From a virus, in IMG/VR virus record IMGVR_UViG_3300031949_000030, positions 686 to 64,685 of that record: 64,000 nt of DNA; one strand, 5' to 3'. The notes under the pieces are model-generated. The model was not told the origin of the DNA and ran no database searches. It was given only the letters and a program-made list of their open reading frames with translations. Of the stretch, positions 2 to 51,092 are shown one piece after another. The stretch's first letter is position 1, and every line of letters starts with the position of its first letter. The translations under genes and the position numbers were made by a program.

Positions 2-3000
2 GATAATGCATCAGGGTATCTCTATGTAGATACTGCTAAGTTCCTCCCACAGTATGGAGACAGGGGATTCGAACTCGCAAGGGATATTATCTTCGGGTAC
101 ATGGAAGCAGAACTAGAGAGGATCAAGATTGTAAAGACAGGTACTTATAACAACATCCCAGGTTTCTCCCAGAGAGGTAAAGAGTTTACTGTCTTTGATA
201 ATGTCTTCTCTGCCGACACTAAGAATAAGCTCTATGGAATAGAAGTTCCCTTCTCAACATTCCTTCAGCAGACAGATGAAGCCTCCATGAATCTTAAGAG
301 AGCTCTCAACAAGGAACTGAAGTCCTACTTTGACGCTTTGATAGAGGATACTGCCACACTTTTAGGTAAGGCTGAATATGTAGATCCTACTATCTATAAC
401 ACTATCCGGGAGCAGATAGGCAAATCTGACATCAAAGGGCTCCTCAGAGAAGATATGAAGAAGGCATCCATAGCCTCCTTTACCTACAATAGCTGGGTAC
501 ACAATTTCGAGACCCTCTCACTTCTATACGGAGACCTGGCTCTCTATAACACATACCTTAAGGAGGAGTTCCATAAGCGTAATGCTTCTATAGCCTCTAC
601 AGGAGATATACCTGTCACAGATGATGAGGATATCAAGTTTATCAACTCTGTAATAGGCAGAGGCTACTCAGCACAACTGGATATACCACAGAAGGACTTT
701 AACGGAACCTTTGACTCGGCTGTTATCCATGATACCAAAGTGCAGTCAGCATACCTTCCTATATATACAGAAGCCTTCAGATCCTACTATAGCCGTAGAG
801 GACTTACAGGAGAAGCTCTGGATAATGCTGTAGAGATTGCTTCCGGGCCTTACAAGAGTATGAATGAAGGAGATGCCCAGGGATGGATGAGTATAGATAG
901 TTACAGGATACTTAAAGTGCTATTAGGTAAGTGGACTCCTAAACACGAAGTGCTCTACCAGAGAGTTATTAAAGGAGAAACTGTGTATCCCCAGGAAGTA
1001 AGTACTTACCTGGCCCCTATGAAGATTCAGTACTTTGGACCGTTAGTTAATGCAGACTTCAATCTTACAGCACTACATAAGTTCTCCATTATACCTTTAA
1101 TCCCTTCTGTAATCAAGGGAACATCTCTGGACGAGTTGCACAAGGATATGGTGAAACAGGGGATAGATTATGCCCTTATGGAATCAGGGTCTAAGATTAC
1201 CACCATGACTACTTCAGGTATACCAGATAAGATATACCTCGACAATAACACCAGGATTCTGGGAGATGTGAAGTTTACCAAGAATACTGTGCATCTTGAG
1301 TATCTCAAAGACCAGCAGGATATAAACAATGAGTTTAAGGGTAATGCCACCTTCTCTACTCAGCTCAGGAAGCTCATAGAGGAGGGTCTCTTTGAGAATG
1401 GAGTTCCGGTTGACTTTATGGCGAAGTCTTCCCCAGATGTCCGTATGGACTCCTGGAGCAAGTTGTCAGAGGAGAAGAGAGTCCAGGCTTCAAGGATGTA
1501 TGACCTGGCCCGTAAATATGAGCTTAATGTAGATAAACTCAATAACCTTAAGAAGTATGAGCTCATAAAAGAAGCAGGCTGGAAGCAGGATGCCTCAGGG
1601 AATGTTATTGTGGGTAGCATGAAGAATATTATGGAGATTATCCGCAGGGAGCTTACCCGGCAGGATCTGGCAGATCACGAGATAGACTTTGTAGAACTTA
1701 CCCAACAAGGTAATATCAAGTATGATTTCTCTATCATGCCTAACGCAGAGAAGATAGAACGTCTGCTGACAGCTATAGTTAACCGCAGACTTATCAACCA
1801 GAAGATCAACGGAGAAGCACTCGTACAAGTCTCAGGATCTTTCTTTGAGAACAGGTCCGCCTTTAGTCCCGAGAGATTTACTAAACCTACTCAGGAGCAG
1901 CTGGATCAATATGGTACTAATGATCTTCCTACATATAGTTTAGGCACAAGTATCTCCAGGAAAGTCAATATAATGATGCAACCTGACAATGTATCTAAGA
2001 TACTGGCAGGTACTAAGACTACCACTACAAGATCTTCCTCCCAGGCATCTCAGATAGATCTTAAGAAAGGAGAGTCGGGAGTTGCTGAATTCGGAGGTAA
2101 GAAGTTTATCGTTACCTCTAGAGGAGAACTTACCATAGATGAAGCAGGGGGTAAGGAAGTTATGATTACATCAGAGGGTGTCAAGTCTGAAGAAAACTTC
2201 AAGTTTCAACAAACTAAAGACTGGGTAAACGGTAAAGGTAAGTTATACGTGTATGACATAAGACCTTATATCCCTGGTAAGACCAAGGCCATGAAGGTAA
2301 AAATAGCTATGCAGGGAGGGTTCGAGAATCTCCTCAGGCTACCTGATGTATACACTAAAGCAGATCAGGAGAATATTACTCTTATAGAGGCTCTTAATCT
2401 CCTGCTCAAGGATGAGAACTGGCTCAACACAGGAGACAACCGCAAGTTCATAACTATGGTTGCCGTGCGCATACCTGTGCAAGGCCTGAACTCCATGGAA
2501 TTTATGGAAGTACATGAGTTCCTCCCCAAAGAAGCAGGTAACATTATTATTCCTCCCTCTGAGATAGTAGCTAAGTCCGGGTCTGACTTTGACATAGACA
2601 AACTTACAGTTATGATGCCTCACATCAAGACTAAGAAGGGGCAGGTTATGCTATACAGCAAATATAGTCGTGAAGAGGCAACACTGATCTATGATACCAT
2701 GAAGAAGAGGAAACTCTTTAATCTCACTTTCCAGGGTATCACTCAGGAAGAACTCCGGAGATACTTCAATCCTAAGATATTCGAAAGCATAGAGAAAACT
2801 ATGTCAGATCTCATAGGAGATCACTACTGGCAGTCTATAGAGGAAGTTCTCACTGAGGAAGGTGTACTTACCTTTGATCAGTTCTTCTATAATCTTAACG
2901 GAGTACGTATCACCGAGAACGAGCTTATAGATAATATCAGGTCTATACTAGAACTTCCGGAGAACTTTGTGAGCCTTATACGCCCCAATGCCGTTGATCT

Positions 3001-5941: not shown

Positions 5942-8900
5942 ATGGCAGCAGTGTGTCCAAACAAGAGTCTTAACGAGTGGATCAGTCTGGAGAATATCTT
6001 CGGGGAATTTGATGCCCACCGTATATGGATGATGAGTGGTAGGGATTACCCTTCAGTACTCCATGGATCACTCTATCTATATCTACATAACCAACCTGCA
6101 GAGGCTACCTCTGTACTGGAACAATACTATCCCTCAGAGGATATCTCAAGACTTGAATCAAGACCGTCCCTCACATCTGTAATCAGTGGGATGAACTCAG
6201 AGGTCTTTGCTGATAGTAACTACCTTAAGTGGATGCAGGACTCAGGACTATCTCAGAAGGTAGGACTGGACAAAGTCTATAAGAATGATAAGATAACCAA
6301 AGATGGTATCCGGTTTACACAGATCACAGTCCACAATGTGGACACTCCGGAACAAGAACCTACCACTAACTTAGATATAGCAAAGCAGAACAATGCCAGG
6401 GCTAAGGAGATTATAACCCGTCTCTCAGACAGACTCTCACAGAAGTTAGGTATTGAATATGAGATGATATCTCCTGAGGAAGCAGAGAAACTTCTATCTC
6501 CTACTAAGACTCCCTGGAAAGGGGAAAATGCTTTCTTTTTCGGAGGAAGAGTGTATTTTGTAGGTGACAATATTACTACTGAGCAGGTTATTCATGAGTT
6601 CTCACATCCTCTGGTGAGGGCTATTCGTGTAGGTAATAAGGAAGCCTTCAACAATCTCTATAAGGAGCTTGTAAACACTCCTGAAGGACTCCTGCTCATA
6701 GAGGAGACAGTTACTTTATATCCGGAACTCAACAGAGAAGAGGACCTCTTTAAGGAAGAAGTCATAGTAAAAGCTCTCTCCAGAAGTGTAGAGCTAAAGA
6801 ACCTGGGGCAGAAGACTAGCAAGGGTTTCGCAGGATTCATAAAGAACCTCCTGTATAACATCAGACAGATACTGCGCAAGGTATTCGGGAGTAAGGTGAA
6901 AGTAGAAAAACTCTCACCGGAAACTACCATTGAGGAGCTGGCTGCACTACTTCAGGAAGAAGACTTCATTATAGATAATGAACTTGTCACAGATGAGAAT
7001 ATAGCAGCTTTTGTGAGGGACACGCGCAAATATGAGCAAGGACTTAAAGATGTGGAGAAAAGTGTCCTGATAGATAATGTTAACCGGTTCTATGATGTGA
7101 TAAGCAATCACGTGAGAAAGGTACGAGAGAATAAGAACTACGCAGAGATGCGTAAGATCTTGGCAGATGAGATAGGTCAGGGAGACCTTGCCGAGATAAA
7201 GAGTACACTCAGATCCTACCAGACTCTTGAGAATAAGATGGCAGAAGTGGCAGAGAATGCAGAGTTTGAGAGACAGAGAATGCAGGCTCTTATACTGAGT
7301 GTTCTGCGTATGGAGGAAATGATACAGAGGGTGAAGACCCACCTCCTGGAGTTAAAGTCTAAGTCAGATAAGGATAGCTTATATAAAGCATCCTACTACG
7401 GTCACCTGACCAAGAGCTGGAAGAACTTTGTAGAGGAATCTAAGAAAGGCCTCACAGATAGTGGAGTACCGGAGTCAGCCGACTTCTACCAGAAGTTAAG
7501 TAATATATCCTCAGCTATAGACAGCTCGGATCGCATTATCGAGTCTATCTTCAAGCCTGTACTTGCTGAAGTATTTGAAGAGCAGTCTAAGAATCTACAG
7601 GCTCATATAGAAAAAGCTCATAAGGACATTATGGAGCAGCTTCGTAAGAAGGATGCTTCCCAGGCGGAACTTGATAAGGAAGTGAGCAACTACAACCAGG
7701 TAAAGCTAGATAGGTCTAAATTCGAACTTCTCCTGGAAGGAAAGCTCGGAGATGCTAACTTCATGAACTCCTACCTGGAAGGTTACCTCTCTAACAATGA
7801 TCCTGTCATAAACAGCTTTGCACTCTTTATAAAGAACACCAAGGCTGCCGCAGAGTTTTCTGCACAGAAGAAGGTAAACGAGTTTCTCAAGACACTGGAG
7901 CCTCTATATAAAGACGTAGGCTTTAGTGCCACTCGCTTCACAAAGACCAACAAGAAAATGATCTTTGCTGACAAGGACGGGTACGTAGATGATGATGGGA
8001 CATTTAAGGAGAGAATAGTCTTCACCTTCCTTAACAGGTTTAAGAACTATAAGTATGATCTGGAGGCTCTCAGGCACAAGATACAGTCAGCTAAGGAGAA
8101 GCAGGATAAGGATGCCTTGAGAAAGTCCGTGACGGAGATGAAAGAGCTCAGACGTAAGTGGTTTCACCAGGAATATGCTCCGGAGTTTTACGAGAGAGAG
8201 AAGATATTTGAACAGTCTGATCTGGCTATGGAAGCAAGAGATGACAGGCAGAGAATACTGGACGAGATAAATGCTGTCAGGCTGAGTATCTCTGATGAAT
8301 TCTCTATGGCAGAGGCTCAGGAAGAGATAAAAGTTCTGCTGGATGAACTCAGGCAGCTGCATTCTCTCAGAGACCTCGGTGGTAATCTCAAGACCGGTAC
8401 AGAACTCGAGAAAGCACAGATACTAAGACAGTATAGAGAAGAGTCCCGGAAGTTTTATGAGTGGAAGGAGATACCCCAGTCATTTGAGACCTCTCTTAAT
8501 AATTATGAGCAGCAGCTCTTCAACCAGGGGATCATAGGGGAGGATGCCAAAGTTCAGAGAGCTATATGGATACGTAATCATACCAGAACCGTAATTAATG
8601 AGAGGTTCTATGAAGTCAGGTCTTCTATTCTTAACAGGATAAAGGAGATAACTTCTCAGTTACCAGAGGATCAGCAATCCAAGCTGGATATATCAGCCGC
8701 ATGGTCTGACATTATAGATACCGTCTCAGGATTCAGGGATAACGACGGACAACCCGTGGGTAGTGATATGAGTGAAGGAAGAGTAGCTCTCATTAAGCAG
8801 AGGCAGGAAGAGATAATCCAGGCACAGTCTCAGCTTGCAGGTCTCTCGGGACTTACTCTTGAGGAAGTAGACGAGCTTAATGATATATACTCGAAACTAA

Positions 8901-11482
8901 AGAATAAGGAACCGGTCTCCCAGGATGAGAGAGACAGACTTACTGAGCTCTCAGACAAGAGAAGTGAACTTAGTCTTACAAAGTTAGAGAGATCCGAGCT
9001 AAGGTCTCTCTATGCTTCTTTGAGAGAGCTGCAGAGTAAGCAGGCTACAGACTACTACCTTGACATACTGAATAACTGGATGACCAAGCTCAATTCTCCA
9101 AAGCAGGATATCACCAGGGATATCGCTGACGAGTTTCTTAAGGATCCTGTCCTGGAGCAACTGTTAGCATCAGACACTAACTTTCGCAGCTGGTTCCTGA
9201 AGAACCATGTAAAGAGAGAGCGCTATAATCCCGACACACAACAGAAGGAGCCTGTCTGGGAGAGACTTTATGTATGGAATGTTATAGTCCCTAACAATCC
9301 CACCTACTATAAAACTACAAAGCTTTCTACAGGGGAGGTTATAAAAGGTGTACCTACACTTGAGCATTACAGTCGTAATATCAGATCCGAGTTCAGAACC
9401 AAGAAGGTAGTAGGAGAGACCATAGATAATACAGGAGAATGGCTCCCTAAAGATATTAAAGGCAGCCCTTATCTTAATGAGGATTATGACAGGCTAAAAA
9501 GGGAAGATCCTAAACTCTTCAAGTTACTTGAGACTCTTAAGAGTTATCACCTGAAGTTCCAGGAAGGTTTACCTAAGACTTCTAAACTTTATCTGGAGAT
9601 TCCTCGTTTCCGTAAGGACAACCTGGAGTATCTCCAGACTACTAATGTGGCCAAGCAGAAGATGTCTGCTGCAGGATCATACCTCAAATCTATCAAGGAC
9701 TACTTCACACATGCCAAGGATGATGCTGAGGTGGGACTCAATTACGAGCAGAACTTCTCACTGGTAAGTACAGACATGTTCGATAATGAAATCACCCGGA
9801 TACCTATCCGTGGTAAGTATGACCTGGATCTTGATCAGGTTTCGCTCGATATCACTCACTCTATGGCCCGCTATATGTTCTCAGCAGAGAAGCAGAAAGC
9901 ACTCATAGAGATTAACCCCTTAGCTCAGGCTCTTAGCCAGGTAGTCTCTAACCAGGAAGACAATGGTATCAAAGATCTCAAGAAGGTAAATAAGTACAAC
10001 TTCGTAAACAGAGGTATTATTACCTATATGAACAAGAAGGGTAAGGGAGTAAGGCAAGCTGCTGTGAACAATCTTATAGAGAGGGAGCTCTATGGTAAGA
10101 CTGTTACAGGAGTAGGCTCCGGAAGTCCTGTCCTTAACAAAGTGGTAAACTTTATGTTTAGCCGTGCATCCTTTCAGTTCTTTGCCCTGAATATTCCACC
10201 GGCTCTTGTTAATAGATGGTCTGCTATGTACCAGACTATGTTGTCAGCTGCGGCCGGTCAGTATCTTAATCTCAGGGACTATACTAAGGGACGCAAGTGG
10301 TCTACTACAGCTGCAGCAGAGATGAGCCAGCAGATATATAACCCCGGCCCTAAGAGTCTCAAGCTACAAATGCTGGAGATATTCGATCCGGCACAGGGAA
10401 GACTCGAAGAGAAATTCGGAGAAGGACCAAGCAGAAGTATAGCCAGAGATGCAGCAGGATTATCCTGGCTGTATAGTCACAGGAAATGGCTGGAGATAGA
10501 GGCTACCTTCCAGCTCTTCGCGGGAATGATGCATCATGTAAAAGTAGAACAGAAGATAGGAAAGACTACCAAGCAGATCGATTATATAGATGCCTGGGAG
10601 ATCAAAGACGGACAGATACAGCTGAAGGAAGGTATAGACCCTGAGTGGGCAGTAGGAGGAGCTAAATTCTTAGCTCAGAGAAACCGGATGCACGAAGCCT
10701 CCAATCAACTCAACGGATCCTTCGGTAAATTTGATCAACCAGAGGGGCAACGTTACATACTTTACAGGTTTGTGATGTTCCTCAAGAGGTACTTCACCTC
10801 TATGTTTATGCACAGGTTCGCCTTTAATACCAGCACAGGAGGCTCCCGGTATAATATTGCACTAGGCGAAATGACGGAGGGAAGATATATAACTTCCATG
10901 AAGTCGGGAGCAAGGTTAATAAAGACACTAGGGGGTCATAGCTACTACATGACACCCGGTGAGAAAAGAGCTCTCCTGTCTAACGGTATAGAGATAATCA
11001 CCCTTACTCTTATGAATTACATGCTCACCTGGATGTTTGACTGGGATCCAGAAGACGAGGAGAGATTCGAGAAGCTCCGGGCTAAGAGTGGTCCTTTAGG
11101 TGCAGAGGATTTCAAATTCGGAGGATGGATGTCTAATCACTTCCTCTATATGGGTATTAAACTCCGGTCAGAGAACCAGCAGTTTGTGCCTCTGCCAGGA
11201 CTAGGTATGCAAGACCTTATAGCTATGGCAGACCCTACAAGTATTGCCAAAGGACCTACTATAGAGTTAGCCGGACAGGTTCTCACAGATCTCTACAATC
11301 TTACCCTGGGGGTAGAGCGAAAAGCTTACTATCAAAGAGACATAGGTCCTTACTCATGGCAGAAGGAAGGAGCACTTAAGACATGGAACCGTCTGGGAAA
11401 GGCTCTGGGGTTAAGCGGAACATCTGTAGATCCTGTTATGCAGATCAAGAACTTTACTTCTATGCAGGCACTCAAGAGATAA
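5942..11482 (+). CDS. Giant protein (1846 aa) with zincin-like HExxH motif; probable virion or ejected protein
   Basis: Uninterrupted 5.5-kb ORF starting 4 nt after the stop of ORF1. 'VIHEFSHPLVRAI' contains HExxH. The central region is Lys/Glu-rich and looks coiled-coil (aa ~380-1000). The C-terminal half is more hydrophobic and globular. Confidence 0.5.
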   Translation: MAAVCPNKSLNEWISLENIFGEFDAHRIWMMSGRDYPSVLHGSLYLYLHNQPAEATSVLEQYYPSEDISRLESRPSLTSVISGMNSEVFADSNYLKWMQDSGLSQKVGLDKVYKNDKITKDGIRFTQITVHNVDTPEQEPTTNLDIAKQNNARAKEIITRLSDRLSQKLGIEYEMISPEEAEKLLSPTKTPWKGENAFFFGGRVYFVGDNITTEQVIHEFSHPLVRAIRVGNKEAFNNLYKELVNTPEGLLLIEETVTLYPELNREEDLFKEEVIVKALSRSVELKNLGQKTSKGFAGFIKNLLYNIRQILRKVFGSKVKVEKLSPETTIEELAALLQEEDFIIDNELVTDENIAAFVRDTRKYEQGLKDVEKSVLIDNVNRFYDVISNHVRKVRENKNYAEMRKILADEIGQGDLAEIKSTLRSYQTLENKMAEVAENAEFERQRMQALILSVLRMEEMIQRVKTHLLELKSKSDKDSLYKASYYGHLTKSWKNFVEESKKGLTDSGVPESADFYQKLSNISSAIDSSDRIIESIFKPVLAEVFEEQSKNLQAHIEKAHKDIMEQLRKKDASQAELDKEVSNYNQVKLDRSKFELLLEGKLGDANFMNSYLEGYLSNNDPVINSFALFIKNTKAAAEFSAQKKVNEFLKTLEPLYKDVGFSATRFTKTNKKMIFADKDGYVDDDGTFKERIVFTFLNRFKNYKYDLEALRHKIQSAKEKQDKDALRKSVTEMKELRRKWFHQEYAPEFYEREKIFEQSDLAMEARDDRQRILDEINAVRLSISDEFSMAEAQEEIKVLLDELRQLHSLRDLGGNLKTGTELEKAQILRQYREESRKFYEWKEIPQSFETSLNNYEQQLFNQGIIGEDAKVQRAIWIRNHTRTVINERFYEVRSSILNRIKEITSQLPEDQQSKLDISAAWSDIIDTVSGFRDNDGQPVGSDMSEGRVALIKQRQEEIIQAQSQLAGLSGLTLEEVDELNDIYSKLKNKEPVSQDERDRLTELSDKRSELSLTKLERSELRSLYASLRELQSKQATDYYLDILNNWMTKLNSPKQDITRDIADEFLKDPVLEQLLASDTNFRSWFLKNHVKRERYNPDTQQKEPVWERLYVWNVIVPNNPTYYKTTKLSTGEVIKGVPTLEHYSRNIRSEFRTKKVVGETIDNTGEWLPKDIKGSPYLNEDYDRLKREDPKLFKLLETLKSYHLKFQEGLPKTSKLYLEIPRFRKDNLEYLQTTNVAKQKMSAAGSYLKSIKDYFTHAKDDAEVGLNYEQNFSLVSTDMFDNEITRIPIRGKYDLDLDQVSLDITHSMARYMFSAEKQKALIEINPLAQALSQVVSNQEDNGIKDLKKVNKYNFVNRGIITYMNKKGKGVRQAAVNNLIERELYGKTVTGVGSGSPVLNKVVNFMFSRASFQFFALNIPPALVNRWSAMYQTMLSAAAGQYLNLRDYTKGRKWSTTAAAEMSQQIYNPGPKSLKLQMLEIFDPAQGRLEEKFGEGPSRSIARDAAGLSWLYSHRKWLEIEATFQLFAGMMHHVKVEQKIGKTTKQIDYIDAWEIKDGQIQLKEGIDPEWAVGGAKFLAQRNRMHEASNQLNGSFGKFDQPEGQRYILYRFVMFLKRYFTSMFMHRFAFNTSTGGSRYNIALGEMTEGRYITSMKSGARLIKTLGGHSYYMTPGEKRALLSNGIEIITLTLMNYMLTWMFDWDPEDEERFEKLRAKSGPLGAEDFKFGGWMSNHFLYMGIKLRSENQQFVPLPGLGMQDLIAMADPTSIAKGPTIELAGQVLTDLYNLTLGVERKAYYQRDIGPYSWQKEGALKTWNRLGKALGLSGTSVDPVMQIKNFTSMQALKR

Positions 11483-11714
11483 GTTACTTATATCTATCCT
11501 GTATACTTCTGGGAGGAAGTCCGGAGATCTCAGATAAGTCTTTCACTGAGACCTTAAATCTACCGGATCCAAATTCGCTATGACTCACCAGGGCATAGGT
11601 ATACCATGTATCCACATAGAGTATGTAGATCTTCTTCTCCTTATAAACTGCGGCGAAGCTTCCTCCTGATCTCTCACTAATAACACTCATATCAATCATG
11701 CTGACGATGATAGC

Positions 11715-11746
11715 AAAAAAGGGGAATAGGTATTACCCTACTCCCC
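11715..11746 (-). terminator. Rho-independent terminator for the minus-strand block at the convergent junction
   Basis: On the minus-strand RNA: GGGGAGUAGG-GUAAUA-CCUAUUCCCC, a 10-bp stem with one G.U pair (plus 11721-11746), followed by UUUUUU (plus A-run 11715-11720). It overlaps the stop of the last minus-strand gene. Confidence 0.5.
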
Positions 11747-12091
11747 CGAAGGTTTAACAGTAGTATCTGCAGAGCAGAGTTTTATATTCAAAAAATCAGG
11801 ATCTACCTGAAAGGTGTACTCTCCAGGGCGTACTATCCATTCTGGCTCATCACCAACGGTGATAGGTAGAGGACCTATAGTAGTCCAGGGATAGACACGA
11901 GGCTGAATATATGGGTATAACCCCTCTGACCCCTCTGTTTTGGGCATAAGAGTATATTCCTCCCAGGCAAAGTCAGGGAGTAACTTCTGGAGTGTATTGA
12001 TCAGCTCCTTCATATTTATACTGTGATCTACAGTTAGTGTTTTAAGGTTAGTGTCTATGGTTATTCTCATAGTCTGTTTGGTTTCTGTCAT
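11738..12091 (-). CDS. Hypothetical protein (117 aa); last gene of the minus-strand block
   Basis: ORF with no antisense competitor. It ends inside the terminator hairpin. Confidence 0.4.
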   Translation of the reverse strand: MTETKQTMRITIDTNLKTLTVDHSINMKELINTLQKLLPDFAWEEYTLMPKTEGSEGLYPYIQPRVYPWTTIGPLPITVGDEPEWIVRPGEYTFQVDPDFLNIKLCSADTTVKPSGE

Positions 12092-15483: not shown

Positions 15484-16045
15484 TATTCTTAACCTCCAAA
15501 CCTTTCAGCTCTACCTGTAGTGTTTCTTTATCAACATCTGGTCTGTCACATAGCTCTCCGGCTATCTTCAGGTCGCGCATGCTACATTTTAGCAGGTCTG
15601 AGTATATAGCAAAGTACTTCTCAGGATGTACATAACTACACACATAAGCGTAGTTTCTGTCCTGACCCCTGAAGTACTCCTTTATCTTTGACTTGACCGG
15701 CTCAGAGAGCTTTGAATATCTTCCGTTGAGGAAGTGTTCCCAGTCTCCGGCATATTTACTAAGGTCAAAGGTATATACAGCTCTTCTCTCAGTTACCTCG
15801 TGATAACTTTCAAAGAGTGTATTCTCCAGTAACATCTTCCGTTCGAAGGTCCTGAAATCAGGATCCTCCCTCCGATAGTAGAGACATACCAGTCTCCTAT
15901 CTGCAGGCTTTATCGTTCCCTCCCAGCCTATGTAAGACTGAATAGGAATGATACTACCTCGTTTGATACCCAGTACAGGGAACAGAAATACCCTGCTCTT
16001 CTGGAAGTATTCAGCATAAATCTTCTTGATCACACCATTAGACAT
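15473..16045 (-). CDS. Hypothetical protein (190 aa)
   Basis: ORF. It overlaps its neighbour by 11 nt, which suggests translational coupling. Confidence 0.4.
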   Translation of the reverse strand: MSNGVIKKIYAEYFQKSRVFLFPVLGIKRGSIIPIQSYIGWEGTIKPADRRLVCLYYRREDPDFRTFERKMLLENTLFESYHEVTERRAVYTFDLSKYAGDWEHFLNGRYSKLSEPVKSKIKEYFRGQDRNYAYVCSYVHPEKYFAIYSDLLKCSMRDLKIAGELCDRPDVDKETLQVELKGLEVKNIVS

Positions 16046-18197: not shown

Positions 18198-19400
18198 TTA
18201 CTTAATAGTTAACTTGATCACGTCCTTATTATCGAGCAGTTTCTGAAACTTCTGCTTATTACCTGTGAAGAGACGCTTGACAAAGATGTACTTCAGATCG
18301 TGCTCTATCATATCTTCTTCAGTGATAAAGCGGATGAGTCTGCTTATGATATCACTGGTTATAGAGTTGTCCTCTGCATGCAACAGCGCAAAGTTAGCAG
18401 TCCTGGTTATAATAGTACTTGCAATATCAGCTCTGTATTTTCCTCCCTTCTTACCTACACATGACCTTATAGAGGCCATGATGTTGTCTTCGTTCTTACC
18501 AAGCAGGATTTCTGCAGGGGTAATAATTCTGTCCAGGCGGTTATTGATAAAGGCAGTAAACATAGAGCTTATATCCGGACCTACACTTCCCTCTCCCAAC
18601 ATCTGGATAAGAGGAAGCTCCGCATCAAAGTCCTTGATAGAACTGATGTTATTAAAGAAGGTCGTAATACTTCTCGGGTTCACTGCATGATTACCATCTT
18701 TACTCACGATTTCAGGATTCAGAAGTACGAAGTTTATACACCGTGTATCAATCTTCTCTCTGTCAGCCCACTCGGACCATACTTTCGCGTCGAACTTCAT
18801 ATTCACACTTGTAAACCTGCTCTTCTGGGCAGGATCGAGTTCATTCACCAGGTAGTTACCATCAGAGGGGTTACTGGTGAGGATAACAGTCCATCCCCTG
18901 GGAAGTTTCCAAGAGAGATACTCCTGTCTCTGTACAAGTTCCATGGTTGCCTGAATAAATCTTTCTGATGCACGGCTGTAATCATCTAACATAAGTATAC
19001 CCCCTCCTTCACGACCTTGTATCCACTCCGGGATAGCATATCCCATCCTTTTCTCACCTGTAGGCTTAAACTTCTGGTCGATATACTTTGGCACAGCTGA
19101 CTCAGGTATCCACCGTGTTTCTCCCACATCATTCTTCACTTCAAGCTCTTTATGGGGATATCCTACAAGATTCTCTACTTCCTCAAGCTGGCTCAGGTTT
19201 AGCTTCACACAGTGGAGGTTAAACTCCTCTGCCATCTGTATAATCACACTGGTCTTCCCAAGACCGGCAGGACCTACCACCTCCAGTGCACCCGCAGGTT
19301 TATTGTTCTCCTGAAGGAACTTATTGTTGTTTATCATATGCCTGATCACGTCCTTCAGCTCGGTAACGTTCAGGGCTACTACTGTTTTGGCTTTACTCAT
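18198..19400 (-). CDS. MoxR-like AAA+ ATPase (pair 1)
   Basis: Walker A 'VVGPAGLGKTSV'. Walker B 'GGILMLDDYSRA'. Sits immediately downstream of a VWA protein. Confidence 0.65.
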   Translation of the reverse strand: MSKAKTVVALNVTELKDVIRHMINNNKFLQENNKPAGALEVVGPAGLGKTSVIIQMAEEFNLHCVKLNLSQLEEVENLVGYPHKELEVKNDVGETRWIPESAVPKYIDQKFKPTGEKRMGYAIPEWIQGREGGGILMLDDYSRASERFIQATMELVQRQEYLSWKLPRGWTVILTSNPSDGNYLVNELDPAQKSRFTSVNMKFDAKVWSEWADREKIDTRCINFVLLNPEIVSKDGNHAVNPRSITTFFNNISSIKDFDAELPLIQMLGEGSVGPDISSMFTAFINNRLDRIITPAEILLGKNEDNIMASIRSCVGKKGGKYRADIASTIITRTANFALLHAEDNSITSDIISRLIRFITEEDMIEHDLKYIFVKRLFTGNKQKFQKLLDNKDVIKLTIK

Positions 19401-23390: not shown

Positions 23391-24071
23391 TCAGAGTTTA
23401 AAATCATCATCTGAATCAACAGGAGGTGTAGTATCTCCTGGTTCGAATGAAGGGACTGCTTTAGACTCTTTACGCTCCAGATGCTGCGACTCCACATATT
23501 TGATAAGCTGACTAGGTTTAGCCTCAGGAGTTTCCAGAGGAACCTTAGTCCCTGAGAATCGTGGGAGATAAAGGTCATGCTTTGTATAACCTCCCTTACC
23601 TTGATACTCTACAGCAGCAAGGCACCAATTAAGGAACTTGTCCTTAAAAGGTTTCTCATCATTAAGAGCCTTGACAAAAGCCTCGATAGTCTCGTGCTTA
23701 TTATCTTGAGCATCACACCACTCCATCCATCCTCCCTGAGCACACAGGTTCTTTATGAACCGAACTATGCTTACGTCTCTGTGAATGACAGTTCCCCCTT
23801 TTGTCTTGCCATCAGAGAAGGGCCACTTATCTGCCTTTACTCTTCCTATCTGTCCCTGGTAGCTTCCCAGAGCTTCATTATCCTTCTCGATCATGAAGCC
23901 TTTGAAATCGCCTCCCATATCGGGACCTTCCAGATGCATTACCAGATGGTAGGCACCCTCTTTATAGGGAACTGTTGTCAGTTCCACACTGTAGATCTTA
24001 GCTTTCGCATTACCGGGCTGGAGTGTCTTTGGAACATCTCCGCCTATCTTTACATCCTTAGTACTTAACAT
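23391..24071 (-). CDS. ssb: Single-stranded DNA-binding protein-like (acidic C-terminal tail)
   Basis: The C-terminus 'PPVDSDDDFKL' resembles the SSB acidic tip (DDDIPF). The gene sits between primase and the recombinase ATPase. Confidence 0.4.
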   Translation of the reverse strand: MLSTKDVKIGGDVPKTLQPGNAKAKIYSVELTTVPYKEGAYHLVMHLEGPDMGGDFKGFMIEKDNEALGSYQGQIGRVKADKWPFSDGKTKGGTVIHRDVSIVRFIKNLCAQGGWMEWCDAQDNKHETIEAFVKALNDEKPFKDKFLNWCLAAVEYQGKGGYTKHDLYLPRFSGTKVPLETPEAKPSQLIKYVESQHLERKESKAVPSFEPGDTTPPVDSDDDFKL

Positions 24072-28125: not shown

Positions 28126-28536
28126 GGTCGTAGTATAAATAGTTTATCAGAGGCTCTTGTGTAGGCCGTATACTTGATTCGGTTACGCTCCACTATCCTC
28201 TTATTGTAGTCAAGGTCTTCCTCAAGGAGAAAGACGTTCTTGTAAGTCGAACCTTGCGGTTCTTCCTCTACCTTTTAGTAGAGGCCGGACTATATCTTAT
28301 GTCGTATCTACTCATAGTCAGCAGAGTGATACACAACATCTAACTGTTTCGAGCAATGATTATGCTCTACTCCCTTACGGGATAGTCTCTGAACCTTCAT
28401 CCTGTATTCAGGATGCTTGGCTGCGGATTGTCCAATCTCTATCTCTTTTACTAGGCTACAGTCATTACTGCTGTAGAGAGTGTGTAGAGCTCTAAGGATG
28501 TCCCCGTCAATTAAGTTAGTTTTACAAGACCCAAAG

Positions 28537-29892
28537 TTAAGCCTTGTGCACAGTAATAGCATAGTTATATTTCACCTGTGCAAACTCCCTCATGAAGTTG
28601 AAGTAGTTAATCCAGGATCCATTAGCTCCCGCACTCGCAATGGCTTTAGCCTTCAGTATTGAGAGTTCTGCTACATAGAGCCCGTGACTATCTTTATGCA
28701 GCACCCTAATAGTATCCTCCACATTAGTACCCTCACAGGTATTACACCTGATTCGGCACTCGTACGTCTTAAAGATCTTAGTTATCCCGAGTCTGTAGGG
28801 AGTGTGACTTCCTACTCTTACATCCAGGACTTCAAATTCATCAGAGGTATTAAACTTCACTCTCTGCTTAGCTCCATCATCAAGGATAGGTTTATCAGTT
28901 ATGAGCCAGTCTCCCTTAACTAACTCAGGCGTGTCTTTACCAAAGCGTATCTCCCGGATGATAGAATTCATAGAGCCTACCGTCTTATTACGCCAGGCAA
29001 GTACCTTTGCATAATTAGGATCTCTCTCAAACTGCCAGCAGTCAAAGTAGTCCTTGAGTAGTCCTCTGAGCCGGTCTCTCTCTGACTGATGTTTACTGTC
29101 AAGCCAGAATACACCGTTACCCTTAGAGTCAACCTCTATAGGTAAAAGCTTGGTTACAGGTTGTTCTGCACCCAGGTAAGTACGAATGGTAGTAGACAAT
29201 CTCACTATGGGATTATCCTGCTCCTGTCTCATTATCTGTGTGAGCTTCTCACGTACAAAGTAATATCCATCCTGGGATACCCCCGTGTCCTTCTTAAGAG
29301 GTATACAGTCCATCCTGTTCACAGGAGGTATCTGGCACCGGTCTCCCAGGAAGATGATATGTATACTGTCAGCATACTTGATCAGTTCTTTAAATAAGGA
29401 GTCATCCAGCATACTAACCTCATCCACGATAAGGACCCTGAAGTTATTGATCACACATCTATCAGCTTTCTTCTGCACGAAGAGTTGTTCACCCTTATCT
29501 GTGATTTCCTCGGTGAGTCCCAGGAGCTTATGTATAGTCATGAAAGCTACGCTATTCATGGACTCATCGAGCCTGCTGGCCCTATACAGAACATTCACTG
29601 CCTTATTGGTAGGAGCGGTCATAGCTATCTGCCAGCGTTTGTGAGTCCGGGTAATAAAGTTTACCAGCTTACTTATGAGAAAGGTTTTTCCCGTGCCTGC
29701 GTATCCCTCTATGACAATACTGGTATTTTTTACGGCATATCTCTGCTCTTGGGGAGAGATATACTTCTTTAGACGACTATAGATGGCAGCTTGCTCCTGA
29801 TTCATCCCATTAGATATGAGTAGCTCACTCTCCCTGATCATCTTCAGCATAGGATCTATAGATCTCTTCTTCATTACCACTGTATTTTGCAT
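28537..29892 (-). CDS. SF1B helicase, Dda/RecD/Pif1-like; C-terminus possibly truncated
   Basis: Walker A 'GYAGTGKTFLI'. Motif Ia 'MTAPTNKAV'. Walker B 'LIVDEVSMLD'. The ORF stops right after 'ITVHKA', where motif VI 'TVHKxQG' is expected. Confidence 0.6.
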   Translation of the reverse strand: MQNTVVMKKRSIDPMLKMIRESELLISNGMNQEQAAIYSRLKKYISPQEQRYAVKNTSIVIEGYAGTGKTFLISKLVNFITRTHKRWQIAMTAPTNKAVNVLYRASRLDESMNSVAFMTIHKLLGLTEEITDKGEQLFVQKKADRCVINNFRVLIVDEVSMLDDSLFKELIKYADSIHIIFLGDRCQIPPVNRMDCIPLKKDTGVSQDGYYFVREKLTQIMRQEQDNPIVRLSTTIRTYLGAEQPVTKLLPIEVDSKGNGVFWLDSKHQSERDRLRGLLKDYFDCWQFERDPNYAKVLAWRNKTVGSMNSIIREIRFGKDTPELVKGDWLITDKPILDDGAKQRVKFNTSDEFEVLDVRVGSHTPYRLGITKIFKTYECRIRCNTCEGTNVEDTIRVLHKDSHGLYVAELSILKAKAIASAGANGSWINYFNFMREFAQVKYNYAITVHKA

Positions 29893-30581
29893 CCGTTATA
29901 CTTGTATAGTACGTTATTCACCTTATTCCAGATATCTTCACACTCCCAACGTTCTGCATTTATATAGGCAGCACTGGCGGGGTGACTCACCATGAACTTA
30001 TGGTTGTTCTCAGCTACTGCCTTAGACCACTCCTGAGCTTTCTTACCGAAGTAGACATAGATCATCCCGGAGTTGTTCCAGTTAAGTACATCAAAGAGGT
30101 AAGAGAGAAATGGTCTCCAGAGCATGTAATGCTGTCCCACCTTACCCACTGTGGTAGTGAGAGCCGTATTGATTAGAAGAACCCCCTGCTCAGCCCATCG
30201 GGCGAGATCCGGGAACCATACATATCCATCTGGATATACAGTCTCCTCCAGAGACTTGAATATATACCTGAGAGAAGCTTCCACCTTCATGGTATTACCA
30301 CAAGAGAAGGCTAGTCCGTCCGCTACTTCAGGTTGCCAGTAAGCATCTTGCCCAAGCATAACTACCTTCAGTTCTTTGTAAGGACACACCTCAAATGCCC
30401 GGAGCATAGTCCTCACAGGAGGGGTGAATCTCTTACCTTCCATCTTCTCTTTATGCAGTTGAACAAGGATCTTCTCCATGTCGCTGCTCAGTAGAAAGCC
30501 CTTAAGCTTATCCGCCCATCCCGAGGGTTTAAGTCTCTCATATAACTTTTGCTGTATATCTTCGAAGTTTACACTCTTCAT
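29874..30581 (-). CDS. ung: Uracil-DNA glycosylase (family 1)
   Basis: 'VVMLGQDAYWQP' (GQDPYH motif). 'VLLINTALTT' (LLLNtvLTV). 'VSHPASAAY' (HPSPLS). Confidence 0.8.
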   Translation of the reverse strand: MKSVNFEDIQQKLYERLKPSGWADKLKGFLLSSDMEKILVQLHKEKMEGKRFTPPVRTMLRAFEVCPYKELKVVMLGQDAYWQPEVADGLAFSCGNTMKVEASLRYIFKSLEETVYPDGYVWFPDLARWAEQGVLLINTALTTTVGKVGQHYMLWRPFLSYLFDVLNWNNSGMIYVYFGKKAQEWSKAVAENNHKFMVSHPASAAYINAERWECEDIWNKVNNVLYKYNGCKIQW

Positions 30582-30609: not shown

Positions 30610-30897
30610 ATGCAAGCTGAAGCTATCCCTTTAGACTCCACAGTCTCTATAGAGATTAGTGGTGCCTTCTACGCCCGTCTCCACCAGTTCTTCTACTCCG
30701 TGGCCTCCAGTAAGTCCCCTGAGGAATTCGCCAAGGCTCTCGAGAAGATCAAATCAGGTAAGACAAGCGATGATGCCTGGGCATATCACCTGGAAACACT
30801 TATCAACCTTCTTAAGGAGGTGGAGGATCAGGCTAAGATACAGGGAAAGATCAAGATGATTGATGTTCCTGATCAACCTTCCTCGATGCTCTCTTAG
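30610..30897 (+). CDS. Hypothetical protein (95 aa) on + strand
   Basis: ORF between minus-strand genes. The protein is plausibly helical, but a real gene is not certain. Confidence 0.25.
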   Translation: MQAEAIPLDSTVSIEISGAFYARLHQFFYSVASSKSPEEFAKALEKIKSGKTSDDAWAYHLETLINLLKEVEDQAKIQGKIKMIDVPDQPSSMLS

Positions 30898-31075
30898 TAT
30901 CTAGCCACAAGCTCACTAATAGGATAAGTAGAATTACCAATGCAACTATCATGAGTCTATGATCCCACCTTAAATAAGGAAGCTTCCTGACCCACAGGAT
31001 GTCCCAAGTAACAAAGCTCACCAACAGATAAGAAGTTGCTAGAACCATAAAGTAGATATATAAATATTGTCTCAT
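30851..31075 (-). CDS. Small membrane protein (2 TM)
   Basis: 'YIYFMVLATSYLLVSFV' and 'LMIVALVILLILLVSLWL' are hydrophobic segments. Confidence 0.4.
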   Translation of the reverse strand: MRQYLYIYFMVLATSYLLVSFVTWDILWVRKLPYLRWDHRLMIVALVILLILLVSLWLDTKRASRKVDQEHQSS

Positions 31076-32228: not shown

Positions 32229-32642
32229 TTATCTTAGGTTACCCCCGGCTTTATCCCCGAGTTCCATACAGGTTTCTATAGCCAGGGACAGGTCTTCGCT
32301 GGAGCACTTCCCGAAGGAGTACTCTACTAACACGGGCTCCCGGTCTTTCTGATGCTTGACAAATAATAGTCCGGATCTCTTCTTTACTACAAGTTTCATT
32401 TCTTCAAAGGTTGTTCCTGTCATCTTTGCCAGCTCCCGGATGCACTTGTGGAGCTTTGCCAGCTGAGCTAAGTTACCACTGTCATCATGGACATCAATAA
32501 AGAGGTCTATGAGCTGACCTTCCGGAATCAGTTTTATGAGTTCTTTATACTGGAGCTCATCTGCCCGACGTATATGCATGAGTTTATCCCCCTCCTTTTT
32601 CAGGGAGCAGGAGAAGGCGGTATTTATACCCTTCTTCTTCAT
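32229..32642 (-). CDS. Hypothetical protein (137 aa)
   Basis: ORF. Confidence 0.4.
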   Translation of the reverse strand: MKKKGINTAFSCSLKKEGDKLMHIRRADELQYKELIKLIPEGQLIDLFIDVHDDSGNLAQLAKLHKCIRELAKMTGTTFEEMKLVVKKRSGLLFVKHQKDREPVLVEYSFGKCSSEDLSLAIETCMELGDKAGGNLR

Positions 32643-32941
32643 CAGATGTGCTTAGTGAGATCTACTCTCCGGATAATCCAGGTAGTAGGTATCTTCAGAA
32701 TAATACCGTGCATCTCTGCACTATCATCATCCTCGGGTGTATACTTCATAGAGAGGAGGATATACTTCTTGGTCTGCTTAATCAACCAGCCTGTCTGTTT
32801 AATTACCCAACTACTCTTCTCTCCCCATACCAGGGCCTCTTTCTGTGTAGACCAGCTTTCCATTCGGGTTATGGCATCACACCACTCCAGGTATATAAGT
32901 TTGTACTTCTCTTTTTTCTTCTTGACCTTACTTTTGCTCAT
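32642..32941 (-). CDS. Hypothetical protein (99 aa), Lys-rich N-terminus
   Basis: ORF. Confidence 0.4.
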   Translation of the reverse strand: MSKSKVKKKKEKYKLIYLEWCDAITRMESWSTQKEALVWGEKSSWVIKQTGWLIKQTKKYILLSMKYTPEDDDSAEMHGIILKIPTTWIIRRVDLTKHI

Positions 32942-32953
32942 ATTCTTGTTTTA

Positions 32954-33030
32954 GCTCCCCCTGAAGGACTCGAACCTCCGTCTCCTGGCCATTGGCTGCC
33001 AAGCACTCTCACCACTGAGCTAAGAGGAAG
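32954..33030 (-). tRNA. tRNA with atypical (8-10 nt) anticodon loop; identity unresolved
   Basis: Minus-strand sequence CTTCCTC-TT-AGCTCAGTGGTGAGAGT-G-CTTGG-CAGCCAATGG-CCAGG-AGAC-GGAGG-TTCGAGT-CCTTC-AGGGGGAG. The acceptor stem pairs. The D-arm reads AGCTCAGTGGTGAGAGT and the T-arm GGAGG/TTCGAGT/CCTTC. The anticodon stem CTTGG/CCAGG encloses an oversized loop, or a 6-bp stem encloses the 8-nt loop AGCCAATG. No CCA is encoded. Confidence 0.6.
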
Positions 33031-33060
33031 ACCTTAACCGCCATGGTTAAGGCTTTAAAG

Positions 33061-33702
33061 TTATTTGTAATATCCTTCTACCGCATTATAGATACGTCTT
33101 ATACAGAAGGGAGTTACCTTACTGAAGAAACCGGAGAGATTAGGAAGAGCATATAATTTCTGATCCTTTATTACTCTCCACGGGGTTCTCTCTGTAGCTT
33201 TATGCACACTTGCAGAGATCAGATATAAGATATCCTCATCAGAGAGTTTCTTAGGTCTGAACTTGTCTGCTATAGCTGTTGCCAACATTCTGTCATCTCC
33301 CTCACGTGTTTTTGCTAAGAAGTAATCAGCATTCATCCACCCCCATAACTTAGGGTTAGGGGGAGGATAGAGTAATACAGGAGGTATGATATATACACCA
33401 GGCTCCTCTTGGGTTATTCCCTCTACCTGTTGCTGATGACTGTTACCACAAAGTGCCCTAAAACCTACATCTGCTGCTATGTCCCATATAGCAGGCCACC
33501 CATTTACACGAGGCATCTTGTTGTTTCTATCTATGTAGTCCCGATGACCTTGTACCCGGCCATAAATATCACCATTTCCTGAGATAGACCCTCCTGTCAC
33601 TTCCTCCCACCGACCTATAGTTATAAGGTTATATCCATGAAGTTCTGCCAGTGTAAGTAGCTGTATTACTCTCTTAGTCATAGGTTCTTTATTAAGGTTC
33701 AC
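33061..33702 (-). CDS. Hypothetical protein (213 aa)
   Basis: ORF. Confidence 0.4.
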   Translation of the reverse strand: MNLNKEPMTKRVIQLLTLAELHGYNLITIGRWEEVTGGSISGNGDIYGRVQGHRDYIDRNNKMPRVNGWPAIWDIAADVGFRALCGNSHQQQVEGITQEEPGVYIIPPVLLYPPPNPKLWGWMNADYFLAKTREGDDRMLATAIADKFRPKKLSDEDILYLISASVHKATERTPWRVIKDQKLYALPNLSGFFSKVTPFCIRRIYNAVEGYYK

Positions 33703-34294
33703 CGCTCCATATCTTGTAGCGGTTCTTTATGTGCCTGTTATATTCAGTGACTCTCCCGACATTATCTGAGAGCCCGTCATACTGGAGAGCTACCATGGGA
33801 TAGCATACATAACCATGCTGGTTACGCAGCTTCTTCCCACTGATCCACTTGTCCAGGTTAATAGTCGGGGGAGCACTAAGAATATCTCTATAGAAGAGGT
33901 CTCTTACTATGTAACAGTGGAGCCCGCTAAACTCGAGAATCCTCCCGAGATTGTTACTAACACCTGTTAGCTCCATATCATAGACCCCGGCGAGATAGAT
34001 CATCCAGTCTTTCGGGAGATACTTTCTGTGTTCCAGGAATCTCTGCATGGACAGGGGATGTGTAAACATGACGTCGTCCTCCATGATGAGAACTTCCTCA
34101 TACCCATGGTACATGGCCCAATTAACAGCACTCTTATGTGCGCTACAGATATTCTCTACGGGTTTCTTACTCAACTTCACAGCTGGGATAACTGCCACAT
34201 CCATGTGATTAATACCCTGCCCTGCCATCTCCTGGACAAAGAGAGTCTGCCGGTCCTCTCTCTTCTGATCATGTATGACTGCCATATGAATCAT
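33692..34294 (-). CDS. Glycosyltransferase family 25-like protein (weak)
   Basis: The N-terminal 'MAVIHDQKREDRQ...' and 'ICSAHKSAV' pattern resembles GT25 (LPS glycosyltransferase) 'IINL.R..R...' and 'GCxLSH' blocks. The similarity is low. Confidence 0.3.
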   Translation of the reverse strand: MIHMAVIHDQKREDRQTLFVQEMAGQGINHMDVAVIPAVKLSKKPVENICSAHKSAVNWAMYHGYEEVLIMEDDVMFTHPLSMQRFLEHRKYLPKDWMIYLAGVYDMELTGVSNNLGRILEFSGLHCYIVRDLFYRDILSAPPTINLDKWISGKKLRNQHGYVCYPMVALQYDGLSDNVGRVTEYNRHIKNRYKIWSGEP

Positions 34295-34795: not shown

Positions 34796-35072
34796 TCATT
34801 CTCTTGATTAAGTCTTGTACCAGAGATATATCTGCTGTTATCTCAAAGCCGACACCACATCCTACTGAATTCTTATCATGACTCTTCTCAGGATAGAAAC
34901 CGCAGACGCCTATCACTACACAGTGTATCTCTCTCTCTTTCACACCTGTGAAATTCCTGCAACATTTACACTCGAGGAAACCACTGTACTTAACCATTCT
35001 TAGTACATCAAAATGTCTTCTATCAAGTCTACCCCGGAGATGGGATCCTGCATTACTCTTCTTACTTTCCAT
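34785..35072 (-). CDS. Cys4 small-protein family, member 3 (95 aa)
   Basis: 'FLECKCCRNFTG', 'HC', 'GC', then 'DISLVQDLIKRM'. Confidence 0.5.
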   Translation of the reverse strand: MESKKSNAGSHLRGRLDRRHFDVLRMVKYSGFLECKCCRNFTGVKEREIHCVVIGVCGFYPEKSHDKNSVGCGVGFEITADISLVQDLIKRMNEE

Positions 35073-35361
35073 ATCTACCTCCTTCCTTCATCTCTAAGAG
35101 TATAGATAATATACCCCACATCTCTTGGGTCATCCGGAATTGTAAGCATCCTTTGGGAGTAGATGAACCAGAATGGTCCTCCTTAGATCGTGTGCCTACA
35201 TATCCTGCTATCTGGCACCACATTGCATCCTTCTCTACTATACCTGAGAAGTTACGGCAGGATCGGCACTCCTTGAAGCTGTTGTACTTAATTCTCTTAA
35301 GTAACTCATTATGACTCTTCTCGAGTTTAGCCCGTAATGAGATCTTCTCACCAAAATTCAT
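35062..35361 (-). CDS. Cys4 small-protein family, member 4 (99 aa)
   Basis: 'FKECRSCRNFSG', 'WC', 'GC', then 'EMWGILSILLEM'. Confidence 0.5.
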   Translation of the reverse strand: MNFGEKISLRAKLEKSHNELLKRIKYNSFKECRSCRNFSGIVEKDAMWCQIAGYVGTRSKEDHSGSSTPKGCLQFRMTQEMWGILSILLEMKEGGRYGK

Positions 35362-50105: not shown

Positions 50106-51092
50106 TTACTTAACAGTGACCAGGGTACTGGAGTTGTTACCCAGAACTGTAGTAGGGTTTACTCCATTCCACCTGGTGACCTTGAGGTAATCCACATAGA
50201 GAGGTGTTATCTCCCTCTGTTTTACCTTCACAGCTTCTGCCTCCGCCCTGGCTGTGATCAGGGTAGCATTAGCTTCTCCGGAAGCTGTAATAACGGCCTT
50301 GGCAGAGTCACCTCTGGCTACTGCTATCTGCTTCTTGGCATTCGCGTCAGCTACGAGAGCTTCCTGAATCTTTGCCTGTGCATCCTGAATAGCCTTAGTC
50401 TTAGCTTCAATGGAGGCCTGAAGAGACGGGGGTGGTGTAATGTTAGTCCTGAGCTGGCTCACAGTGAACCATTTTGAGACACGCTTATTACACTCTACGA
50501 TGATGGCAGACTCGAATTCTTCCCGCTTGTTAAATATATCATCTACAGCCCACCGGTTAGCCACATCATTGACAGAGCTGATGATGGCATTCTTAAGCCA
50601 TCCCTGTTCTACTTCACTAATCTCCCGCCTGAGGTTCTGGAACATATCTCCAACGGCTGTCGGGATCAGGGAGTAGTTGAATGACGGCCGGATTGTAGCA
50701 CTGAAACCACCTTTGGTGATCACATGCTGGTCTTTGTACTCGATGTGTTGCTGATAGGTCGGGAACTCATAGAGCTGTTCAGTCCAGGTGTTATAGATTA
50801 CCCAGCCGGTCTTATAGGAGTAGTTAGATACCCCACGGCTATCGCCGGTGAGCCTGACTTTTATACCTACATGTCCGGCATCTACTCTATCGAGGGCATA
50901 AGGCTGGAAGAGGGCAACAAGTAGACCTATAACAAAGATAACCACAGGTAGTACAAGCCACTTGGGATTTGATGTAGTATGTCTATCTCCGTGCCTGTCC
51001 TCTGTAACGACTTCGTTGTACTTCTTACGGGTGGCAACAAGTGCCCCCACTGCGGTCAGCGTAGACAGCAGCAATATTATCCATGATATCAT
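50106..51092 (-). CDS. SPFH/band-7 (prohibitin/HflKC-like) membrane protein
   Basis: N-terminal TM 'IILLLSTLTAVGALVA'. A second hydrophobic segment. A C-terminal Ala/Gln/Lys-rich coiled coil, 'ASIEAKTKAIQDAQAKIQEALVADANAKKQIAVARGDSAKAVITASGEANA...ARAEAEA', typical of SPFH proteins. Confidence 0.6.
   Translation of the reverse strand: MISWIILLLSTLTAVGALVATRKKYNEVVTEDRHGDRHTTSNPKWLVLPVVIFVIGLLVALFQPYALDRVDAGHVGIKVRLTGDSRGVSNYSYKTGWVIYNTWTEQLYEFPTYQQHIEYKDQHVITKGGFSATIRPSFNYSLIPTAVGDMFQNLRREISEVEQGWLKNAIISSVNDVANRWAVDDIFNKREEFESAIIVECNKRVSKWFTVSQLRTNITPPPSLQASIEAKTKAIQDAQAKIQEALVADANAKKQIAVARGDSAKAVITASGEANATLITARAEAEAVKVKQREITPLYVDYLKVTRWNGVNPTTVLGNNSSTLVTVK

Follow-up and report, generated by a model that had tools for sequence, protein, structure and literature searches.

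The question raised by this locus is what to make of a viral gene that combines the body of an ordinary tRNA with an anticodon arm that is too long for reading codons in the usual way. The window, i.e. the whole 64,000-nt stretch of DNA that was analysed, is part of a 125,705-nt contig and contains one tRNA gene in all, located by both ARAGORN and Rfam on the minus strand (33029→32955). The tRNA gene with an oversized anticodon loop announced by the original prediction is thus real, but it is encoded by the minus strand. ARAGORN reports it as 'tRNA-???' at 32954-33029 (-), with a 4-base anticodon (ccaa) at position 35, and the Rfam tRNA model RF00005 matches 33029-32955 with 45.2 bits (E = 2e-6 for the window, against a gathering score of 29), its alignment placing a 9-nt insert within the anticodon loop. 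The gene is 75 nt long (32955..33029, minus strand, ARAGORN extending it to 32954) and its body is that of a canonical class-I tRNA: the acceptor stem UUCCUCU/AGGGGGA with discriminator G is followed by U8 and A9, a D arm GCUC-AGUGGUGA-GAGU, then G26, and, beyond the anticodon arm, by a variable loop AGAC and a T arm GGAGG-UUCGAGU-CCUUC. When this body was checked against the canonical cloverleaf, with its 7-bp acceptor, 4-bp D and 5-bp T stems and the tertiary set U8, A14, G18G19, A21, G53, U54 U55 C56, A58 and C61, all 22 stem pairs were found to form and U8, A14, the D-loop GG, A21, G15/C48, G26/A44 and the UUCGA T loop to be present, in agreement with the canonical acceptor, D and T arms that had been claimed. 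The CCA end is not encoded, CUAAAAC coming directly after the discriminator.

The anticodon arm, at tRNA nt 27-46 (32984..33003, minus strand), reads CUUGGC-AGCCAAUG-GCCAGG and folds, in the MFE as well as the centroid structure, into a 6-bp stem (CUUGGC/GCCAGG) and an 8-nt loop (32990..32997, minus strand) whose closing pair is C:G. When all stems of 4 bp or more were enumerated for the segment that separates the D arm from the T arm, only two folds were recovered, this one and a 5-bp stem with the 10-nt loop CAGCCAAUGG, just as had been described; the 5-bp and 4-bp sub-stems of the former share its 8-nt loop, and the 10-nt-loop fold likewise has a 4-bp sub-stem. An ordinary 7-nt loop formed in another register, the possibility raised against the original prediction, is absent from all the stems enumerated and is thereby ruled out, so that the description stands. 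U33 is missing from the window loop, whose second base is G or A and not U. A canonical arm would combine a 5-bp stem with a 7-nt loop that has U33 and, at position 37, a purine; the arm of the window gene exceeds it by 2-3 nt and has one additional base pair. No motif of its loop or stem is repeated elsewhere in the window. In short, what the phage carries is a tRNA gene or a tRNA-like gene whose anticodon arm departs from the canonical form.

Assignment of an isotype by similarity had to be dropped, the ARAGORN call being '???' and the BLAST neighbours being mixed (Pro, Asn, Gln, Ile and Leu). In a sensitive BLAST search against phages these neighbours were all weak: a Bruynoghevirus tRNA-Pro (75%), an odd Aeromonas-phage tRNA (80%, 58 nt, E = 0.01), a haloviral tRNA-Asn, the 3' end of a mycobacteriophage tRNA-Gln and the D arm of ileZ from an Stx phage. 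The combination of G73 with U1-A72 resembles that of bacterial Gln or Asn tRNAs; an anticodon matching either amino acid is absent from the window loop. In addition, no close homologue was retrieved from IMG/VR or the JGI metagenomes with exact or loop-free patterns, neither a parent isoacceptor nor a host tRNA came to light, the sources covered for a parent being phages, IMG/VR, the JGI metagenomes and the GTDB genomes, and a D-stem/anticodon-stem pattern run over 185,579 species genomes gave 7 hits, 0/7 being tRNAs. A megablast comparison of the 6 kb around the tRNA with 50,697 phage records gave no match. The premise of a crAss-like phage is unsupported, in view of giant ORFs without a PHROG hit and a family-A DNA polymerase that shares about 34% identity with Sashavirus-type phages. 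These giant ORFs (1945 and 1846 aa) lie next to each other on the plus strand (101-5938 and 5942-11482), and their only Pfam hit is a C-terminal DUF7831.

The first function to be considered is that of a suppressor. Stop-recoded phages, in which TAG or TGA is reassigned, carry suppressor tRNAs, and the window tRNA resembles these in being carried by an uncultivated phage. It differs from them in its loop, since CAGCCAAUGG includes none of the triplets CUA, UCA and UUA, without which the tRNA cannot pair with a stop codon. It differs also in its genomic setting: read with code 11, 95.6% of the window is coding (greedy ORF set), the ORF stops are TAA in 54 cases, TGA in 34 and TAG in 18, and the two ORFs of 1945 and 1846 aa run without interruption. 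The 64-kb window therefore bears no sign of stop-codon recoding, there being no in-frame stops and all three stops acting as terminators. Recoding was accordingly rejected for the window, and the possible suppressor tRNA of the original prediction did not hold up: the window tRNA is not a stop-codon suppressor.

The frameshift-type label proposed alongside it fared differently. An 8-nt anticodon loop, as in frameshift suppressors, is indeed present and ARAGORN reads a 4-base anticodon from it, so that the label is fair in its anatomy; it is fair in anatomy only, since U33 is absent and neither a parent nor a target in the window was found. The +1 suppressors (sufD tRNA-Gly CCCC, sufA6 and the tRNA-Pro SufB2) and engineered quadruplet tRNAs have, like the window tRNA, an 8-membered loop closed by G:C or C:G in an otherwise normal molecule, but they arise by a one-base insertion in a recognisable isoacceptor and keep U33 and purine 37. 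The window tRNA is no such isoacceptor with one inserted base: it is 2-3 nt longer than canonical, has a sixth stem pair, and neither a parent nor an in-window target was found for it. Efficient quadruplet tRNAs keep U33, A37 and a G:C pair beside the loop (PMC11231383), of which the window tRNA has the last only, a G (or A) standing before any 4-base anticodon in AGCCAAUG and a U coming after CCAA. Besides, both strands of the 64-kb window were scanned for +1 sites, defined as an in-frame UUGG or UUGC with a long frame ending soon after and a long +1 frame continuing. One candidate per motif was obtained on the minus strand, plus one UUGC on the plus strand, which is about the chance expectation, and the sole UUGG candidate, at 15499 (-), precedes a gene with an ordinary start of its own (AGGAG-N5-ATG). 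A programmed +1 site was thus discarded, no window gene that requires a shift at UUGG or UUGC having been found.

To place the gene among its relatives, loci were retrieved from IMG/VR and the JGI metagenomes through a nearby UDG-like gene (29874-30581), which yielded about 160 loci with 43-62% amino acid identity, most of them having no tRNA within ±10 kb. Two of these loci, L125 and L168, have an ordinary tRNA-Arg(UCU) with the loop CUUCUAA, which fits the AGA-rich codon usage of the window. In that usage, which is unusual for 43.8% GC, Ile is encoded mainly by ATA (38 per 1000) and Arg mainly by AGA and AGG, while AAG and GAG are preferred; the window has no tRNA for ATA or AGA codons.

Further relatives carry tRNA-like genes that score above the Rfam threshold and have an abnormal anticodon arm. 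In L060 (3379-3452; 39.5 bits with the Rfam tRNA model) a clean cloverleaf has either a 6-bp stem with a 5-nt loop or a 5-bp stem with the 7-nt loop AAAAUAU, again with no U33, and in L062 (5122-5209; 37.9 bits) the D and anticodon region is grossly abnormal; both genes were missed by a whole-locus Rfam run in gathering mode and scored in a local search. L126 (6189-6275) and L176 (6188-6274) share one identical gene (52.8 bits), whose anticodon stem has 8 bp and whose loop, UUCUGAACCCAUUU, has 14 nt. This loop holds an intact Gln-type UUCUGAA plus 7 extra nt, and ARAGORN calls the gene an 87-nt tRNA-Gln(CUG). Including the window, the clade thus has 4 distinct tRNA-like genes with an abnormal arm and an intact body, as against 2 canonical tRNAs. 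The recurrence of such genes in the relatives is plain. The pattern of a top half that is kept and an anticodon arm that varies appears, from these sequences, to run through the window, L060, L062 and L126/L176, whose genes may or may not be of common descent.

The L060 element is also syntenic, lying directly upstream of the homologue of a 137-aa ORF of the window and of the UDG-like gene. In a covariance-model alignment with the window tRNA, 98.5% of its cells are paired and both sides have changed in 10 of the 22 pairs; this covariation speaks for two good cloverleaves and not for common descent, because any two tRNAs behave in this way. A covariance model built from the two alleles matched L060 alone in 727 kb of relatives, and, among the 62 loci that carry the 137-aa gene, no tRNA stands at the syntenic position apart from those of the window and L060. 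An attempt to reach further alleles through the flanking ORFs failed, their 99-aa and 206-aa proteins being essentially unique.

A similar body and loop pattern is found in unrelated T4-like phages of Aeromonas. When the window tRNA is compared with the phage collection by BLAST, the hit with the best score is the odd tRNA mentioned above (79.7% over 58 nt, E = 0.01), which is carried by the Biquartavirus phages AhFM11, AS4, Asfd_1 and B614 (L008-L011, L099 and L100), where it stands between tRNA-Asp and tRNA-Met and is annotated as Leu, Cys or Gln or left unannotated. Its body is conserved, with compensatory changes in the stems, while its loops (CACAAC, CAUAAC or CGUUGUA between GGGC/GCCC stems) vary in sequence and length and have no U33. 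Between AhFM11 and B614, the odd tRNA is 87% identical with differences mostly in the loop, whereas the adjacent tRNA-Trp and tRNA-Asp have bodies that are 75% and 72% identical and anticodon loops that are identical. Because of this difference from its neighbours, at least one other lineage has phage tRNA genes in which the body is constrained and the anticodon loop is free. Like the window tRNA, the odd tRNA combines a class-I body with a lack of U33 and with variation concentrated in the loop; unlike it, it has a loop of 6-7 nt and not 8, is clustered with normal tRNAs and has ACC at its end. A specific homology between the two is not shown by the window covariance model, because the 48-50 bits given to the odd tRNA are equalled by an ordinary phage tRNA-Pro (50.4 bits).

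Variation within the loop is seen even closer to the window. An exact-protein look-up retrieved a second assembly with the same genes, a 19.9-kb Logan contig from SRR9005073 (L002), whose first 12,000 nt correspond to window 35228-23229 with one base differing. This sole difference, C in the window and G in L002, lies at 32995 (minus strand), i.e. at tRNA nt 35 and the third base of the loop, which is AGCCAAUG in the window and AGGCAAUG in L002, where ARAGORN reads the anticodon as gcaa. A lone random difference would fall within the 8-nt loop with a chance of 8/12,000 (~7e-4). Nevertheless, the variant base sits right after GGC in an inverted repeat, UUGGC-A-GCCAA, which is perfect with the C allele and belongs to a context where template-switch (quasi-palindrome) mutations and sequence-specific Illumina errors alike cluster. 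Since the site is prone to error and mutation, the position of the difference is no clean evidence of selection, and its use as such was withdrawn. We consider it quite improbable that the C/G difference is a real, selected switch of the arm in a working tRNA, which would make the gene a natural phage quadruplet or +1 decoder (CCAA/GCAA) and might mean that the clade uses the tRNA body as a scaffold on which fast-evolving anticodon-arm modules are shown to the translation or defence machinery of the host.

Regarding the genomic surroundings, a terminator-like hairpin (33031..33053, minus strand) with a 9-bp stem ends 1 nt ahead of the tRNA, its pyrimidine tail CUUCCUCUUA running into the 5' acceptor strand. 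On the other side, the 13-nt spacer CUAAAACAAGAAU (32942..32954, minus strand) leads from the discriminator to the next ATG and carries a gene-start motif, CTWAWA. This motif, often ACTAAAA and mostly at about -15 to -17, occurs upstream of 17 of 106 ORFs, compared to 4.6% of random 30-mers, and may be a phage promoter or a signal for processing or initiation; further examples precede the minus-strand genes 30851-31075, 33692-34294, 35062-35361 and 50106-51092. It is also found 3' of the tRNA-like genes of L060, L062 and L126, with the similar CTAAAC 3' of the canonical tRNA of L125. The tRNA genes thus lie precisely at gene boundaries; since that of L125 has such a boundary too, this placement is not specific to the abnormal genes. 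Shine-Dalgarno cores stand upstream of 21 of 105 genes, i.e. at background (19% in random sequence), which suggests that translation in the host starts independently of such cores. The genes on either side are a 99-aa ORF downstream (32642..32941, minus strand), of no known family and with a single weak homologue elsewhere, and a 206-aa ORF upstream (33061..33702, minus strand, counted from its ATG), with no homologue except itself; a search of 5.8 billion proteins gave no useful relatives of either, the lone homologue of a flanking ORF (55%) has no tRNA nearby, and no tRNA-related enzyme lies beside the tRNA gene, the flanking ORFs being without Pfam or PHROG hits.

The reading that we prefer, tentatively and with a probability of about 0.36, is that of a tRNA-like RNA that would be processed like a tRNA without canonical decoding. 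Such an RNA would be transcribed by read-through inside the minus-strand operon. RNase P would cut its 5' end, the upstream mRNA then ending in the 9-bp hairpin, and RNase Z or a similar enzyme would cut after the discriminator, 13 nt ahead of the next start codon, before CCA is added; since the top half is kept, the RNA should be a recognisable substrate for RNase P, RNase Z and the CCA-adding enzyme. Selection would act on this top half, leaving the anticodon arm free to vary, and the RNA might serve as an element of processing or punctuation, or as a mimic bound by host factors that bind tRNAs. We infer in this way that the gene is expressed, that its product is processed and not used for decoding, and that the phage benefits from it. 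Several of the above observations point in this direction, namely the canonical body with its 22 stem pairs and all its tertiary bases, the lack of a 7-nt-loop register, the abnormal-arm genes of the relatives, that of L060 being syntenic and well paired, the comparable pattern in the Aeromonas phages, and the order of hairpin, tRNA, 13 nt and ATG, which fits excision from a polycistronic RNA. In addition, nothing in the window requires a special decoder. Conversely, ordinary tRNAs of the clade such as that of L125 lie at gene boundaries of a similar kind, and a hairpin just upstream with a gene-start motif just downstream could mean that the gene is barely transcribed. The genes of the relatives may be independent acquisitions, which would render the covariation between window and L060 trivial, and their recurrence is subject to ascertainment bias, because tRNA finders need intact acceptor and T arms and lesions elsewhere go unseen. 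Finally, U33 is reportedly not absolutely required for decoding, so that decoding by the window tRNA may still be feasible.

It also counts against a tRNA-like RNA that a tRNA disabled only recently would look no different, its body having had no time to decay. A recently inactivated tRNA, or pseudogene, in which a small templated insertion or duplication has struck the anticodon arm and which is functionless and will eventually be lost, is possible and nearly as likely as a tRNA-like RNA. Indeed, GCCAA in the loop is the exact complement of UUGGC in the 5' strand of the stem, one base away, and GCCA recurs 7 nt apart (GCCAAUG|GCCAGGA), both features being such as template switching or slippage would leave. 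The empty syntenic position in the other loci with the 137-aa gene, the lack of a close homologue in IMG/VR, the JGI metagenomes and the 185,579 genomes, and the terminator-like hairpin, which may limit transcription, are all in line with such an inactivation. On the other hand, phage genomes purge dead DNA fast, yet abnormal-arm genes with intact bodies outnumber canonical tRNAs in the clade by 4 to 2; moreover, all stem pairs and tertiary bases of the window gene are intact, and the lone difference across 12 kb falls in its loop. The GC-rich quasi-palindrome of this region, being of a type that produces sequencing errors, might also have led an assembly or sequencing artefact to add one or more spurious bases to a normal tRNA. 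This is very improbable, because the two independent assemblies agree on the length of the loop, as well as on the 75-nt gene and the stem, and because deletion of any 1-3 bases still gives no loop with U33.

Both readings in which the gene decodes are possible but lack expected features and targets. The RNA could be a triplet decoder with an unusual loop that evades host anticodon nucleases, acting as a Trp tRNA for UGG in the window (anticodon CCA) and, after a selected switch of anticodon, as a Cys tRNA for UGC/UGU in L002 (GCA), which we regard as rather unlikely. NCAA corresponds to what Trp and Cys tRNAs have as anticodon and A37, the tRNA-Trp of Che12 having the loop UCCAAA, the first base of the anticodon is the site of the lone SNP, and G73 is the bacterial Trp discriminator; but the acceptor pair U1-A72 is not Trp-like, a Cys tRNA needs U73, and the SNP site is a hotspot of quasi-palindrome mutation and of Illumina errors at GGC and inverted repeats. 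Phage tRNAs have been proposed to evade anticodon nucleases through changes in the loop (van den Berg et al. 2023, PMC10264068), and these tRNAs, like that of the window, deviate only in the anticodon loop and concentrate their variation there; the documented cases nevertheless keep a 7-nt loop and a readable anticodon matching a host tRNA, whereas loop and stem size are changed in the window tRNA, with its 8 nt, 6 bp and lack of U33. Quite unlikely, too, is a +1 or quadruplet decoder with an expanded loop, in which CCAA would read UUGG and the GCAA allele UUGC, or CCA would read UGG and then shift. The 8-nt loop, its C:G closure, the 4-base anticodon that ARAGORN gives for both alleles and the variant base as the first of that anticodon would suit such a decoder, as would the G:C pair beside the loop that is a feature of efficient quadruplet tRNAs (PMC11231383). 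The U33 and A37 conserved in the latter (PMC11231383) are replaced in the window by A-G for N-U and by a U after CCAA, the stem is one pair too long, and the search for a parent isoacceptor was negative. A shift at UUGG or UUGC is not required by any window gene, no change that would compensate for the GCAA allele is seen across the shared 12 kb, and unregulated shifting at UGG or UUG would harm the proteins of the phage (271 UGG and 88 UUG codons in the window).

Returning to a tRNA-like RNA, non-decoding RNAs of this general type include the tRNA-Other of Bacillus cereus and the tRNA-like RNAs of gammaherpesvirus-68. By analogy, the window gene would resemble them in a cloverleaf with T arm and acceptor kept, in a non-canonical anticodon region and in a presumed role in processing or regulation; it differs from them in that there is no sequence relationship. 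The gene is of note mainly for the recurrence of its kind across the clade and for the restriction of variation to the loop. If functional, such remodelled-arm genes would make up a class of their own among phages, with tRNA-like products that exploit the machinery of tRNA processing and recognition without ordinary decoding, and would bear on the reasons why phages carry tRNAs and on their contest with tRNA-targeting defences. A natural quadruplet decoder, if true, would be of interest to engineers of the genetic code, while a merely freshly broken tRNA would be an ordinary finding. Whichever applies, calls of 'tRNA-???', Leu, Cys or Gln on such phage genes should not be taken as suppressors or as evidence of recoding.

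Two minor observations concern the surrounding genome. In the look-up by exact protein, the products of 23391-24071 (-) and 18198-19400 (-) were returned as 'not on record', although 23391-24071 has an exact DNA match in L002, in the form of a 226-aa gene listed there at 11158-11838, and the look-up therefore gives false negatives. Finally, a group I intron at 28266-28611 (-) (RF00028, 67.8 bits, E = 5e-15) splits a gene for a PIF1/Dda-like helicase, the ORF of its exon 1 spanning 28537-29892, and a group I intron is likewise present in the relative L062 (20099-20330, 81.6 bits).
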